Source: Eledone cirrhosa
Taxonomy: Eukaryota
NCBI GenBank assembly: GCA_964016885.1
Contig: OZ024742.1
Coordinates: forward strand, 255,502,001 to 255,566,000
DNA: 64,000 bases
Reading direction: 5' to 3'
The notes beneath the pieces were generated by a model. It was given only the letters and a program-made list of their open reading frames with translations. It had not been told where the DNA came from and did not search any database. A program made the position numbers and the translations under genes. Below, one piece after another: positions 12,378 to 64,000 of the stretch (the first letter of the stretch is position 1; each line of letters begins with the position of its first letter).

Positions 12378-12524
12378 ACTAAGATAGTGTGGTAAGATTC
12401 CAGGTGGACCATAACGCACCAGAGTACTCAATACTTAGGGTAGTAGAGTGGGTAATAGGTAAAGTTCGGATCTAGCTGTCGAAACAGCCGGAGCTTAGCC
12501 GCCGGGGTCCCGACTCTTTCCCTA
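12378..12524 (-). mobile_element. Mini terminal insertion of the Naiad family seen at 62399
   Basis: Shared tail (GTGGTAAG..CATAACGCACCAGAGTACTCAATACTTAGGGTAGTAGAGTGGGTAATA) plus inverted hammerhead 3' half; TA flanks. Confidence 0.75.
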
Positions 12525-12559
12525 TATATACATATCGCTTGCTCTGATCGATCATTCAT

Positions 12560-12760
12560 TCACTTGCCGAGTGGAGTGGACCTCATCAACATGTTTCCAT
12601 TATTCTTTCCATTGGTGATACTATCTACCGATCACAACTCCTGGCAGAATGAGAAATGTGAATAAGGTGTCTTGCTCAAGGAAAACATATCACCGGTCCG
12701 ATAATTGAACTCTCATCCTCATGATTCTGAATCCAACTCTCTAACCACTAAGCCACGTGC
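12560..12760 (-). mobile_element. Old tRNA-derived SINE head (second family)
   Basis: Reverse complement reads GTGGCTTAGTGGTTAG (A box)..GAGTTCAATT (B box)..CCTTGAGCAAGACAC. Confidence 0.6.
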
Positions 12761-12939
12761 TTTCTCACACAAACGTACACACCCAAAGATATATGTAAAC
12801 AATTTGTTCCAATATGATTCTCTAGATCTGAAAGGGTTGAGATAGCGTTCATTCTTGTGTGTGCTATACAATGTCAACCACCAATATACTGGAGGTAAAA
12901 TCACAATCTGCTGAACGAAGTGATCTTAAGCATGTATTA

Positions 12940-13225
12940 GAATGGGTTAATGGTTAAGATGTTTGATTCATTTCGTTGCATCATGAGCAAGTCATTTACC
13001 ATTGCCTCGGTTCGACCCAATTATTGTGAAGTTGTTTGTTTGGAAGCCCAATGGATGGACTGACTGTAACCGTAATTGAAGGAGGTAGCTTTGTCACATA
13101 CTGTATCACATTGAATCTCCTTCAGAATTACGTTATAGGTACACATGTTTGTAGAATGCTCAGCCGCTTATAGGTTAGTTTCACGAGTCGGTTGTTCAGT
13201 TGATCGTAAAACTGGTTCACTTATC
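12940..13225 (+). mobile_element. Old SINE (second family), diverged
   Basis: Homologous to 13697-14000, 16085-16395 and 19090-19430. Confidence 0.55.
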
Positions 13226-13696
13226 GTTGAATTCGACGGAAATCCATTTCAGAAAGAAATCAATAATTGGATTAAATGAAAGAGATTTCTATTCCTGACT
13301 GAAGCCAGATCATTTGGTACGCCTCAAGCAGTTTATAACTTCATGTGATATACATGAAAGTTAAACTTCTTATTCCCTTATTCACTAAATAAAATAAACC
13401 AATTTTCTGGAATAGGTCCAAGAGCGTGATCCAAAAAGCTAAAAGAAAATCTTTTGGCGCTTAAAATCGACGATATGTTTATCGATTCAAACGTGTCTGA
13501 AGGTATAACCAAAGGCATTTTGAGGAATATACTACTACATTATCTCTCTACATAGACAAGGAGGTTGTATCTGTCTTAGGAAAAATTATTTAGTAAGAGC
13601 TGCTAGCAGAACAACTAATCCAAACTCTTATTGCTATACATTGTACTCTCACAAGTAAAATCACACTTCAATTAGACACAACTATATATATATAAC

Positions 13697-14000
13697 TGGC
13701 AATCCGTCAGTTACAACGATGAGTTTTTCAGTTGATAGGATCTGCGGAACACTCTGCTCATAAAATTACACGTTAAGCATTCCAAAGACACGTGTACCAT
13801 TAACGGAATACTATGGAAGATTCAGCGTGACATCATATTAGGAAGCTGGCCGTTTGAATTATATTTACAACTCCTTTTCGTCAGCTGAGTTGACTGGAGC
13901 AACGTGAAATTAAATGTTTTGCTCAAGTATCCAACGCACAAAAGGGAATTGAACTTAGGACCTTAGAAACTTGAGCCATAGAGCACTAAGCCACATGCCT
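13697..14000 (-). mobile_element. Old SINE (second family), near full length
   Basis: tRNA-like head at right end (GTGGCTTAGTG..AGTTCAATTCC); body shared with other copies. Confidence 0.65.
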
Positions 14001-14235
14001 TCACACAAACACATACTCACACATATATGTGTGAGCGTGTGTGTGTGTGTGTGTGTGTGTGCGTATGTGTGAAGACATGTGGCTTAGAGCTGTTTGGCTC
14101 ACCCCAAACACAGACACACGCGCACACAAACACACACACACACACACACACACACACGCACACACACACACACACGCACACACACACACACACACACACA
14201 CACACACACACATATATATATATACAACTTTACAG

Positions 14236-60734: not shown

Positions 60735-61140
60735 GGCTTCCGAAACAGCTGATGTATGGGGAACTCTGTTCGGGGAAACGAAAGCAGGGCAGGCCTCTCA
60801 AGAGGTTCACAGACTGCGTGAAGTCCGGCATCAACAACACTGGAATCGCCGCCCCAACACAACTCGAGTCCCATGCTCAGGACAGGACTGAGTGGCGAGC
60901 CCTTACCAGACGCGCCAAAGACTCTTTTGAAGAGAAGAGAGGGGTAGAGGTCTCTGAGGCCCGTGAAAGGAGGAGAAAGGCATCAGCAGCTGCCCCAGGT
61001 AACCCCGGTCACTTCCTCTGCTCCCACTGTCCCTGGACCTGCAAGTCAAGGATCGGCCTCCCCAGCCACCTTCGTGCCCACGGCATACGGGAACTAAAAT
61101 AAAGATGTCATCATCGTTTACGATGGACAATCAACAGATA
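60735..61140 (+). mobile_element. 5'-truncated RTE LINE 3' end
   Basis: YGELCSGKRKQGRPLKRFTD, AQDRTEWR, CSHCPWTCKSRIGLPSHLRAH; 3' end TCATCATCG..CGATGGAC. Confidence 0.9.
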
Positions 61141-61334
61141 TGTGCTATTCCTCAGTTAGTCTTAGGCATTCACTACTCTTTACGAGTAGGATTGAATGCC
61201 TCATTTAATTGCATACTATGTATAGTTTTTACCCATTTGCAAAGTTCTGCATAAACCCTAACTTCAAGTTGCGACTTGTCTTTGTAATGACACCGTCCCC
61301 CAATGCCTTTGTATCAAACAAAAATATAGTCGTC

Positions 61335-61447
61335 TTGTTGTTGTTGTTGTTGTTGTTGTTGTTGTTGTTGTTGTTGTTGTTGTTGTTGTTGTTGTTGTTG
61401 TTGTTGTTGTTCTTCTTCTTCTTCTTCTTCTTCTTCTTCTTCTTCTT
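61335..61447. repeat. (TTG)n(TTC)n microsatellite
   Basis: Direct reading. Confidence 0.95.
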
Positions 61448-62109
61448 ACTTATTCATAGGTGGGTCGTGGGGCAGAATCCTCAGATAAGCTTAGTAGAAT
61501 GTCTTACCAAATCACGGCCCAACCTAATATTTCGATACTCTCTATATCTAAAACAACCCACCGCATGTATTTCTTATAATATCTCAAACAGACGGCTAGC
61601 AAAACATTCTGACTAAATGACATATATCTAAATATATATATATAAATATATATATATAAATATATATAGGAAGATATATATCTGATCGAATGTGAATGTG
61701 TGCGTGTGTGTGTGTGTGTGTGTGTGTGTGTGTGTGTGTGTGTGTGTGTGTGTGTGTGTGTGTGTGTGTGTGTGTGTGTGTGTGTGTGTGTGTGTGTGTG
61801 TGTGTGTGTGCGTGCGCGTGCGTATGTGTGTTTCTGTTTATGTGTGACGATGGCGGAGATTGTTGGTTTGGTGTGAAGGCGATTCAGATAAAACGAATCG
61901 TTTATGGAATATAACATGTCATGAGGTCGTGGAAGTTATCCAGTTTGGCTGCGTGAAATAAATGCTAGAGGCAGTTTATAGGAAAAGGTAGAGAGATATT
62001 GAAATATTCAAATATAATATATAAAAAAATAAAAAAATAAAATACTGAACAATGAAGAAGAAGTAGTTATAAGTTGAATTATAGGAAGAGGGAGATAGTA
62101 AAGCAGAAT

Positions 62110-62296
62110 ACGGATTGGAAGTATTGGTAGAGGGTCGGACGCTATGCTTTGACGCATAGAGTTACGGCCCTTGCTATTCTGAGTTCGAATCTCGCCGAGG
62201 TTAACTTTGCCTTTCATCCTTACGGGGTCGATAAAATAAAGTACAAGTAATATACTGGATAATTACTGGCCTTGTGCCAAAAAGTACAAACAATTA
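62110..62296 (+). mobile_element. Meta-domain tRNA-SINE copy
   Basis: Family match. Confidence 0.88.
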
Positions 62297-62398
62297 TATA
62301 TACATATATATATATAAAATATGTATATATATATATATCCATATATATATATATATATATATATATATATATATATATATATATATATATATATATAT

Positions 62399-64000
62399 AG
62401 GAACAAGTATGACCTCGACGGCAGAGCTCAAGCCGTTTCGACGGCTAATTCTGGACTAAATAAGAATTTTTAGCCAGGTAAATAAATAGCCGAACTTCTC
62501 AGGGGGTAATTCCATTTATGGGAAGAAAGTAATTGTCAAAAGGATTGGTCAATAATTTGTTGTAAAGACCTATGATTCTATCATGGCATTTAGTGGAAGG
62601 TAGGGGTAGTTGAGCTTGCTGGTAGAATAAAGAGGGAGTGGGTGAACCCAGTCAAGTGTTGAAAGTGAAATCTATACAGCAGATTCTAAGGATAGTGTAA
62701 AAATGAGGAAATAAATATATAAAAAATATAAAAAACAATTTCTGGTTACTACTCCATCCCCACAATCACCAAATCTCTCATTGGTATTGCTAAGCTATAG
62801 AAAAGTTTAATAGGTGGAGAAGAATCCTAAATACAGATTGTAGTGAAAGAATTTTATAAAGCCATCTTTACAGACAATTTTATAAAGACATCTTTACACT
62901 GATATAGTTAGTAGTAATCAGCCAATGCTATCTTACAATGACAGGTTAATAAATTGAGGACAAACATACTAAAAAACTAATACGAAATATTAATTCAGAA
63001 AGCTAATACATAAATACTAATACAAGAATACTAATGCAAAAATACCACGAACAATTTTATAAAGCCATCTTTACAGGGGATCTAACGCCACTACTATAGT
63101 TAGTAGTAATCAGCCAATGCTATCTTACAATGACAGGTTAATAGGTTGAGGACAAACATACTAAAAAACTAATACGAAATATTAATTCAGAATACTAATA
63201 CATAAATACTAATACAAGAATACTAATGCAAAAATGCCACTATGAAATTTAGAAATCACGGAAATGAAGCAGCAACCAGAAAGAAAGCAATTATCTGGGG
63301 TCTAACACATCTGCCATAAAAAGCGTAATCGGCCAATTCTATCTTAAAATTGGGGGTACTGAGGCTACAGAGGACCGATGAACTGCATCGGGGTGGGCGA
63401 AAAGGCCGCCTTGGACTTTGCCGAAACACTCGCGCCCATCACCGACCAGGAAAGAAATATCATCCTCCACGACAGGAAGACAGTCCTACTTTTAAAACAA
63501 CTCCAAATGGACAAATATAGCTTTTGACTCCCCCTTTGACGTTAGTATGGGCGCGGCGGATTCGGCTGAGGTCTCAGATCTTATAGGATTATTCCTACTA
63601 TTTAAACTCACCAAAATGTTTCCTGCATTCGGTGGTGGATTGTACCGTGATGATGGGCTCCTTACCCTCAAAGGGTACAACCCCAGTAGTACAGACCGGG
63701 TCCGTAATTAATCAGCTTCTTCCGCGACTGGGGATTTAAAATAACCCTACAAACGTCCCTAACCCGAGTAAACTTCCTGGACGTTCCCTTAACCTCGATA
63801 ATGATCTGTACTACCCATAGAGGAAACCAAACGACAACCTGCATTATATCCACCGCCGGTCGAACCATCCTAGAAACATCACCAATTACCTGGTTAAAAA
63901 CATCCCCCTCCGAATATCTCGCTTGTCCGCTAATGAGCAGATATTCGATGAACTTATTACAACCAGGCCCTCAAGCGGAGTGGCTTCCGGGAGGAAATAT
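62399..64000. mobile_element. Second Naiad-type PLE: inverted 3' arm (62399 to ~63400) followed by a + strand 5'-truncated, frameshifted RT that runs off the window
   Basis: ALDFAE..IILHDRKT, FDVSMGAADSAEVSDLIG, GGLYRDDGL, NFLDV, SNHP; the left end matches the mini elements; ~190-bp duplication at 62850-63250. Confidence 0.85.
62412..62507 (-). ncRNA. Hammerhead with extended stems II and III; first box variant CTGAGAA
   Basis: Reverse complement: ACCCC-CTGAGAA-GTTCGGCTA..TAGCCGTC-GAAA-CGGC..GCCG-TC-GAGGT. Confidence 0.6.

Follow-up and report, generated by a model that had tools for sequence, protein, structure and literature searches.

Short palindromic copies of a Penelope-like element in Eledone cirrhosa end at a sharp, family-specific boundary that may be set by the template RNA

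The 64-kilobase (kb) stretch of the 3.0-Gb Eledone cirrhosa genome analyzed here, comprising positions 255,502,001-255,566,000 of OZ024742.1 and hereafter referred to as the window, harbors five short insertions (minis) related to the 3' end of a Penelope-like element (PLE). Minis of this kind are head-to-head copies of the PLE 3' end, which are joined at their 5'-truncated ends, carry one tail, and lie within (TA)n. Their truncation displays a sharp peak at 55 to 64 nucleotides (nt), with no smooth decay, where arm positions here and below are counted from the 3' end of the element. We lean toward the view that a short template RNA, through the position of its 5' end, sets this common arm length, as opposed to a reverse transcriptase (RT) stalled at a ribozyme. 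Two related families are involved, namely, family A, which includes the long element starting at position 62400 together with the minis at 41768 and 26550, whose arms match the first 58 nt of that element (89 to 95% identity), and family B, which comprises the copies at 12378, 27333, and 27731, these being only 74 to 79% identical to the same end. The original prediction, in which all five minis were derived from the terminal 50 to 60 base pairs (bp) of a single family, thus holds for 41768 and 26550, while the other three form a separate family.

Arm lengths were determined by anchored alignment of both arms to 14 references, using a sample that consisted of the first 90 of 100 listed tail places on contig C1, taken in genome order and independently of arm length; as it is anchored on the tail, this sample omits insertions without the tail's first third. 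Among the tail-side arms (n = 90), 43 ended at 55 to 64 nt, compared with 2 at 65 to 149 nt, 8 at 150 nt or more, and 37 at 0 to 54 nt, the latter being spread at 0 to 6 per 5-nt bin, and the mapping of truncation points suggested in the original prediction consequently refuted a smooth decay. A second arm was adjacent at 62 sites, where 30 tail-less arms ended at 55 to 64 nt and 2 extended beyond 64 nt. When arm ends were counted per nucleotide, 28 of 60 were located at positions 57 to 59, and in a sample anchored on a 30-mer, 15 of 23 elements turned at positions 53 to 65. Family B arms end at the homologous site, GATCCGAAC(T), at positions 59 to 61 in approximately 18 of 26 sites. A hammerhead-shaped fold (described below) has a small hairpin within its stem II, and it is in the 3' half of this hairpin that the arms end; the earlier statement that arms stop within stem II is in this respect accurate. 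A fixed ruler of approximately 58 nt operating across families was considered and rejected, as the corresponding arms measure approximately 170 nt in family H and 92 to 460 nt in family G, two further families present in the window.

The lengths of the two arms of an insertion are, furthermore, coupled. Elements with an arm of more than 100 nt were gathered from both samples and from kilobase-spaced 30-mer pairs (13 regions), and nine such elements were found to possess partner arms of 108, 125, 153, 223, 514, 536, 830, approximately 1900, and 1866 nt, respectively. None of the nine partners measured 55 to 64 nt, all 18 arms having passed the site at which minis end, while about half of the nine would be expected in that range if each pass carried an independent stop probability of approximately 0.5. 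This absence argues that the limit belongs to the template and not to a stall of the RT at each pass. The suggestion, made as part of the original prediction, that the site marks an RNA end is that which best fits the coupling of arm lengths.

The junctions at which the arms meet vary, which argues that the minis arose by repeated formation and not by the spread of one master hairpin, and yet the truncation point is non-random; the earlier proposal to examine junction recurrence thus leads to a third outcome. The 34 unbiased family A minis contained 27 different junction strings, and fillers of 1 to 21 nt, some of them runs of A or T, were present in 21 of 62 junctions. Over the first 20 nt, the two arms showed no more than 1 nt of difference in 39 of 53 pairs compared with 17.9% of random pairs, a level that was reached in 0 of 5000 permutations, and such sharing of variants by both arms of a copy argues for one template per insertion. 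Discordant arms were considered as proof of two template RNAs, a reading that was rejected since the differences mostly concern the terminal 8 nt or alignment shifts (elements L125 and L141, which resemble genuine chimeras, excepted).

An alternative which we regard as unlikely is that the minis constitute an independent nonautonomous lineage, in which a master hairpin-plus-tail is copied whole and its center mutates later. Such a lineage would be in keeping with the 95 to 100% identity of 40/40 scored genome places to the 198-nt window mini (40 of 1464 first-look candidates), the presence of the exact center of this window copy in 8 of its 30 nearest copies, the recurrence of some junction strings, and the identical arm-to-arm mismatch in two copies each (L098/L101 and L113/L136). 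It is at odds, however, not only with the 27 junction strings reported above but also with the at least 20 centers observed among the 30 nearest copies. Moreover, mini subfamilies each share their terminal variants with contemporary long elements; arms extending to position 90 gave 80 exact matches for GGAGTAAG and 516 for GGAACAAG, and mini L192 holds loop sequence specific to the long GGAGTAAG subfamily. The arm bearing a TCAAT filler reveals no fixed polarity of the unit, as it was on the tail side in 7 and tail-less in 8 of 15 unbiased copies; its apparently constant tail-less position among the 30 nearest copies was rejected as query bias. Families A and B also have a common boundary despite an arm difference of approximately 20 to 25%. 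Self-amplification of minis, which the original prediction had offered as an alternative, is not needed to account for junctions that vary and for arm subfamilies of which every one checked has long copies.

Several further features of the junctions and arms were observed. In L099 (C1:4946955 region) and L139 (C1:18731436 region), approximately 17 T or A residues separate the arms, which suggests untemplated addition at an end of the complementary DNA (cDNA). Members of the GTAC subfamily (L179, L180, L183, and L186) contain the 10-nt sequence AATTCTGTAC repeated two or three times at the turn in a stutter-like manner. A frequent filler, ACTCAAT(A), represents the reverse complement of the tail segment ATTGAGTAC and hints at a brief template switch onto the tail. 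Recurrent deletions of 22 to 23 nt, located in the arm between two direct repeats of AGCCGTCG, were evident in L064, L140, and L147 and resemble template slippage.

If arm length is indeed set by a short template RNA, as we favor, insertion would proceed as follows. The element nuclease would introduce nicks in both TA-repeat strands, and the RNA would begin at approximately arm position 58, include the tail, and reach into the adjacent UA repeat, its 5' end being made by transcription start or by RNA processing. Synthesis of cDNA would be initiated at two places on this one template, i.e., beyond the tail and at the UA of the body-tail border, and both cDNAs would run off the template 5' end at a conserved YYAGTYC site (between YYA and GTYC; arm positions 57 to 59), following which the two cDNA 3' ends may be joined by microhomology or after untemplated additions. 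Run-off of two cDNAs on one short RNA would produce symmetric arms and a single tail, and two priming positions would explain those copies in which a shorter tail-side arm accompanies a full tail-less arm (12378, 27333, L080, and L114). In a similar manner, a self-complementary run-off end would generate perfect palindromes, as represented by CATATG in family H and GTAC in one family A subfamily, and a shared template end would explain why no element was found to combine a long arm with one of 58 nt. All subfamilies of families A and B that were seen possess the proposed site (TTAGTCC, TCAGTCC, TCAGTAC, TTAGTTC, and TCAGTTC), and in family A it is preceded by a TATTTAAATA box approximately 29 nt upstream. 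Transcription start within the terminal repeat is described for Penelope and Chlamys-3 in passages of Craig et al. 2021 (PMC8557442), while self-priming at junction palindromes, as proposed in a passage of Arkhipova et al. 2013 (PMC3846280), is a possible origin of the second arm.

A number of observations weigh against this model. The 5' end of the RNA is one that we infer; the TATA-like box is found at the spacing of approximately 29 nt in family A and not at that spacing in family B, and the resemblance of the site to YYANWYY is not very informative. Arm ends are spread over approximately 10 nt and include a second cluster at positions 52 to 54 (18/60), which a single start site leaves unexplained, and no excess of structure over shuffled sequence was measured for the arm-plus-tail RNA (z = +0.94), with no recognition structure evident. 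Certain junctions recur among the 34 unbiased minis (CTGGACTG four times, CTAGTCCAG three times, and CTGTACAG and CTGAGTCCAG twice each), a recurrence that would fit blunt or microhomology joins at preferred ends, and the TCAAT filler is present in 18/100 GTAC-subfamily arms; both observations may reflect a degree of mini-to-mini copying or a filler that is templated. Finally, L125 and L141 join arms of different subfamilies, an arrangement that is not predicted by a strict one-template model.

A more far-reaching form of the short-template proposal, which we advance only tentatively and consider doubtful, is that the 3' end of the element behaves as a tiny gene, whose RNA of approximately 140 nt (58 nt plus the 79-nt tail) captures the enzyme and templates most of the approximately 28,000 palindromes, its start or processing site lying in stem II of the dead hammerhead. 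The two arms would again stem from two priming events on one RNA. If true, it would provide a first sequence-level handle on the boundaries of PLE pseudo-long terminal repeats (pseudo-LTRs) and on the origin of inverted arms.

The last 112 nt of families A and B can, on the sense strand, be drawn as a hammerhead with stem I, box, stem II, GAAA, stem III, and GUC. Stem I is formed by GGAAUU-A-CCCC and GGGG-U-(CUUACU)-GGUUCC, the box reads (U/C)UGANAA, and a long stem II (CGGCUAUUU / AAUUAGCCG) encloses the small hairpin in which the arms end; in the domain of the long window element (62400-62512), CUGAGAA stands where CUGANGA is expected. In an alignment of nine family A and three family B 3' ends, 86.4% of cells in the drawn fold were paired versus 23 to 48% with the partners slid, and changes on both sides that preserve pairing were evident in 3 of 10 pairs of stem II and in none of stem III. 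A competing hairpin, GCYGU-YGAA-ACRGC, has 93% of cells paired and one compensatory pair, and the minimum-free-energy folds of the 116-nt 3' domain, which vary by copy, mostly choose the hairpin AGCCGU-CGAA-ACGGCU over the hammerhead-like junction. Three helices around a core with an NUH triplet are present, the triplet being GUC in 11 of 12 copies and GUU in L102. As regards the positions of the conserved type I core (C3 U4 G5 A6 N7 G8 A9 and G12 A13 A14) in the 12 copies, GAAA is retained in 11, G5 in 9, and G8 in none, and family B also lacks G5.

The sequence CUGANGA was found in 0 of the 12 aligned ends and in none of the first 100 of 4,893 genome matches, among which A8 was present in 98 and G8 with U3 in 2. 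The relic box combines U3 with A8 in about two thirds of copies and C3 with A8 in the rest, including the window copy (62493-62499, minus strand), and the former combination would keep the C3-G8 pair as U-A. A U3-A8 pair may partly replace C3-G8 in hammerheads; literature searches for such a rescue returned nothing. Rfam searches gave no hammerhead at gathering score across the whole window, and at E<=10 there was none at 62385-62540 or among the 150 listed of 190 window matches. Efficient self-cleavage by a fold with such a core would be unlikely, and the structure is best read as a hammerhead relic, without a catalytic box, that probably plays no causal part in truncation. The original prediction had treated this end as the hammerhead of the element, a designation that cannot be upheld for a structure with GAAA, stem III, and GUC but a (U/C)UGANAA box and no Rfam match.

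A simple descriptor detected canonical hammerhead motifs at 27013-27079, 33141-33195, and 28157-28103, all of which belong to other families. The canonical CUGAUGA..GAAA..GUC motif of family G begins 10 nt into the right arm of the palindrome at 26739-27266, in line with the original prediction, which described this hairpin as turning at stem I of its own hammerhead; however, the 14 close pairs of family G, with arms of 92 to 460 nt, have no preferred turn, and the window copy is one case among many. Family H possesses an intact hammerhead at approximately positions 43 to 109 from its 3' end, and 20 of its 29 close inverted pairs are spaced by 290 to 301 nt (8 of them by exactly 293), corresponding to arms of approximately 168 to 173 nt that join at a CATATG palindrome approximately 60 nt upstream of the ribozyme. 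At 47832, the left arm contains the reverse complement of GAAATGCGCATAATAA, and the turn lies approximately 6 to 10 nt beyond it, in agreement with the earlier description of a turn just past GAAA.

These comparisons bear on the cause proposed in the original prediction, namely, that the hammerhead fold stalls the RT, or that self-cleavage makes an RNA end, and truncation consequently occurs at the ribozyme. We consider this improbable. The location of the 55- to 64-nt peak of families A and B in a helix matching stem II, the pairing of the fold and its both-side changes in stem II, and the turn of the 26739-27266 palindrome 10 nt upstream of its own canonical motif all speak in its favor. Nevertheless, the catalytic CUGANGA box is missing and no Rfam hammerhead is present, as detailed above, and the predicted cleavage would give arms of 17 to 19 nt, for which there is no excess, the bins 10 to 14, 15 to 19, and 20 to 24 holding 5, 4, and 4 of 90 arms, respectively. 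A stall of the RT is further disfavored by the more G+C-rich strands of stem III and stem II that have already been copied before the site is reached, and a stall at each pass by the 18/18 arms of the nine longer elements that continued beyond it. The comparison across families weakens a ribozyme cause still more, as the turn in 20 of 29 family H pairs lies upstream of an intact hammerhead by approximately 60 nt and family G has no preferred turn.

Trimming after insertion, in which unstable long palindromes would be shortened from the center to a stability threshold, agrees with the rarity of spacer-less palindromes with 65- to 149-nt arms (2/90) and with junction microhomology and short fillers such as end joining gives, but is very improbable given that family H palindromes with arms of approximately 170 nt and perfect CATATG centers are common (20/29 pairs, 8 identically spaced), that arms of 257 nt separated by a spacer of only 14 nt form a palindrome in the window itself, and that nonpalindromic asymmetric or single-arm insertions (L138, L156, 12378, and 27333) also end at positions 57 to 60.

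The sequence at 62400 is the inverted arm of a long element, full copies of which occur elsewhere at 3 to 4.4 kb and consist of inverted terminal repeats of variable length around one reading frame; the inverted arm measured 310 to 1390 nt in the 10 of 12 long copies in which a repeat was found. In copy L033, the frame (L033:929-2842; approximately 638 codons) encodes the motifs FDIESYY, YRDDGL, FLDV, DKT (read directly as HSDKTDN), and CNCPDRSLC (CxCX5C), followed by NVIYxC..AYIGLT, such that the RT comes first and CxCX5C and a GIY-YIG nuclease are C-terminal. In copy L044, the frame and 3' untranslated region together span approximately 2.97 kb, and the parent unit is thus one of approximately 3 kb with an RT plus a C-terminal GIY-YIG nuclease. 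The L033 frame is otherwise 99.5% conserved, yet contains two in-frame stops at L033:1409-1411 and 2450-2452. In the window, a 5'-truncated RT frame starts at approximately 63405 and runs beyond the window end, residues 192 to 423 being matched by tblastn at L031 1405-2089. A protein search yielded 701 homologues, some of which, from Apostichopus japonicus and Stylophora pistillata, have their domains arranged alike, and in homologues P0004, P0066, and P0082 the RT precedes the nuclease as in L033. As regards the CCHH motif, which the GIY-YIG core of the Hydra clade lacks, reading by eye revealed no cysteine from IIY to YIG in the homologues and one in the L033 copy. Pfam returned no match for three reading-frame pieces or four homologues, and PF26215 was precomputed for many homologues in the protein search.

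The C-terminal nuclease, DKT, and CxCX5C point to a Hydra-type element and not to Naiad, the clade to which the original prediction had assigned it. Naiad identity was rejected on the grounds that the Naiad nuclease is N-terminal to the RT, to which a CxC domain connects it, as opposed to C-terminal in L033 and its homologues; the (TA)n preference and the lack of a canonical hammerhead would also fit Naiad, but neither defines that clade. The parent is, according to its motifs and domain order, its insertion in (TA)n, and its homology to proteins of host species named in PMC8557442, classified as a putative Hydra-type PLE. Its derivatives are abundant, with 27,646 exact genome matches (13,830 + 13,816) to an arm 30-mer covering positions 24 to 53 and 28,146 (14,090 + 14,056) to a tail 24-mer, the reversed control giving 0 in each case. 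Family B accounts for 4,716 genome matches, family H for 1,779, and family G for 92. Flanking (TA)n was observed for 30/30 nearest copies, for most of the 90 tail-anchored sites, and for all five window minis.

The tail was seen solely at element ends and never within long copies. Of 12 long copies, 6 carried it on the 5' side and 4 on the 3' side, 1 had a tail at each end, and 1 was unclear, independently of frame direction, and passages of Craig et al. 2021 (PMC8557442) and Arkhipova et al. 2013 (PMC3846280) describe PLE tails at either end. Between families A and B, the 79-bp tail is more conserved (89 to 95%) than the arms (74 to 81%). Tails at both outer ends were noted in some insertions (L259, L051, and L097), of which L259 (C1:11226200-11232100) spans 2.6 kb and has arms of 830 nt, and L097 is a two-tailed mini whose arms measure approximately 14 nt. 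The family H tail is different and measures approximately 95 nt, the 28157 copy (window 27965-28080, minus strand) carrying GCATACTCC...CTCCTACA, while the copy at 33141 (33141-33230) ends straight into (TA)n, i.e., a one-sided tail rule in a second family.

Within the window, a BLAST comparison using 62391-62560 recovered the terminal 44 to 79 nt at all five mini loci, with matches at 41761-41839 and 41889-41817 (89 to 90% identity), 26640-26683 (95%) and 26738-26691 (85%), 27325-27390 (79%), 27720-27776 (74%), and 12530-12473 (76%). The 79-bp tail was identified at four of the five minis (41887-41965, 26549-26627, 12388-12457, and 27416-27483; none at 27731), which bears out the earlier report of a mostly shared tail of approximately 80 bp. 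Inverted repeats were detected at 41767-41827/41829-41889 (arms of 61 nt, 97% complementary), at 26625-26666/26691-26732 within the 26550 mini, and at 27331-27354/27395-27418, the last belonging to an asymmetric mini with arms of approximately 60 and 22 nt; none was found at the 12378 copy, where the order is tail, approximately 6 nt, and 59-nt arm. Further inverted repeats at 26739-26995/27010-27266 (arms of 257 nt, spacer of 14 nt) and 47824-47874/47924-47974 belong to other families. The features are listed in Table 1.

Table 1. Minis, parent element, and other hammerhead-associated features in the window (positions count from the first nucleotide of the window)
Feature	Positions	Strand	Description
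Family A mini, tail-less arm	41770..41827	+	Antisense copy of the element's last 58 nt, directly after (TA)n
Family A mini, tail-side arm	41829..41886	+	Sense copy of the last 58 nt: GCCGTC-GAAAC-GGCTTGAGCTCAGCC-GTC-GGGGTCTTACTTGTTCC
79-bp tail of 41768 mini + TTA	41887..41968	+	TATTACCCACTC...CCTTCG, then (TA)n
Tail of 26550 mini, family A TATTTCTG subfamily	26549..26627	-	95% identity over 79 nt
26550 mini, palindromic body	26628..26729	-	Arms of ~57 and ~45 nt; 10-nt internal deletion in one
Tail of 12378 copy, family B	12380..12457	-	94% identity over 70 nt
Body of 12378 copy, family B	12458..12522	-	~6-nt tail-side remnant, then 59-nt tail-less arm; no palindrome
27333 mini, family B	27335..27415	+	60-nt tail-less arm joined to ~21-nt tail-side arm
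Tail of 27333 mini	27416..27495	+	89% identity over 70 nt
Single family B arm	27729..27777	+	~48 nt, without tail, between TA repeats
Long family A element, inverted antisense arm	62400..64000	+	Arm of ~1 kb, then 5'-truncated RT frame
Hammerhead-shaped 3' domain of long element	62400..62512	-	Stem I, CUGAGAA box, stem II, GAAA, stem III, GUC
Family G palindrome	26739..27266	.	257-nt arms; canonical hammerhead motif at 27013-27079, mirrored in left arm
Palindromic mini of another family	47824..47974	.	Arm holds hammerhead 3' half (GAAATGCGCATAATAA)
Canonical hammerhead motif, family H	33141..33195	+	Second copy at 28103-28157, minus strand, with own tail of ~95 nt

Two further observations concern the surroundings of these features. 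Downstream of the long element and just past the window, a tandem array (L031 3850-4723; C3:255567850-255568723) has a period of approximately 67 to 68 bp, with 75 to 86% identity between copies. Dozens of subthreshold Rfam microRNA look-alikes (mir-297, mir-466, mir-1277, and others) arise from TG/CA and TA microsatellites at sites that include 14023-14170, 23796-23975, 39000-39540, and 49337-49622 and are simple-repeat artifacts.

PLEs are the least understood major class of retrotransposons, for which the origin of inverted arms, pseudo-LTR boundaries, and tails is still open, and an in vitro system for the study of this origin is called for in a passage of Craig et al. 2021 (PMC8557442). 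In the genome considered here, natural insertion products of a single family number in the tens of thousands, and the mechanism can be constrained with them. The new elements of this analysis are the sharp family-specific arm edge, the coupled arm lengths, and the comparison across families, which combine into a testable claim of a short template RNA. Four constraints, namely, the sharp arm limit, the coupled lengths, the variants indicative of one template, and junctions made anew at each insertion, together argue for a limit at the level of the template and against truncation shaped by a ribozyme. The approximately 28,000 palindromes of 120 to 200 bp in TA microsatellites also matter for genome assembly, for repeat annotation, and for false microRNA or hairpin calls, and they possibly affect microsatellite stability.

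Type I hammerhead ribozymes are reportedly carried by the pseudo-LTRs of PLEs. The 3' ends of families A and B resemble these in their GAAA, in a stem III whose loop, GAGCUC, is palindromic, in the GUC triplet, in a stem I in which the extreme 3' end of the element is paired, and in the compensatory changes in stem II between the two families; they differ in that 98/100 copies have A8, approximately two thirds have U3, family B is without G5, and no Rfam model is matched. The Hydra clade as described by Craig et al. 2021 (PMC8557442) is characterized by a C-terminal endonuclease (EN), a single short frame, a length below approximately 3 kb, DKT (changed from DKG), a CxCX5C linker replacing CX2-5CxxC, and (TA)n targeting, and canonical hammerheads are "readily detected" in its elements. 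The parent element shares with this clade the single frame with an RT and C-terminal GIY-YIG nuclease, DKT, CxCX5C, the unit of approximately 3 kb, insertion in (TA)n, and homologues in Apostichopus japonicus and corals, whereas its 5' box, (U/C)UGANAA, and the spacer of approximately 53 nt to GAAA depart from canonical hammerheads.

Non-LTR retrozymes of animals, according to Li, Clavereau and Pollet 2026 (bioRxiv 10.64898/2026.07.22.740005), are likewise short, noncoding, and derived from PLE terminal repeats, and are probably mobilized by PLE enzymes. They are, however, tandem hammerhead-bearing units thought to arise via circular RNA, unlike the minis, in which an inverted pair is combined with a tail and carries half of a relic hammerhead. 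Identity with retrozymes was rejected, as minis are single inverted-pair insertions in (TA)n without the 5' half of the fold, tandem arrays not having been searched systematically.

The layout itself is the known PLE insertion architecture. Passages of PMC3846280 and PMC8557442 describe insertions of EN-positive (EN+) PLEs that contain a 5'-truncated copy in inverted orientation and, on one side, a tail of 30 to 40 bp; a sharp arm edge or coupled arm lengths was not found stated in those passages, and a literature search on Penelope-like palindromic minis in microsatellites returned nothing relevant. The head-to-head inverted copy, the tail at either end, the microsatellite target, and an inverted junction with palindromes or microhomology are features common to EN+ PLE insertions and to those reported here. 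What sets the latter apart is a tail of 79 bp, the absence of an internal part from most insertions, which consist of just two 55- to 64-nt arms, a sharp family-specific edge of arm length, and the coupling of arm lengths within each insertion.

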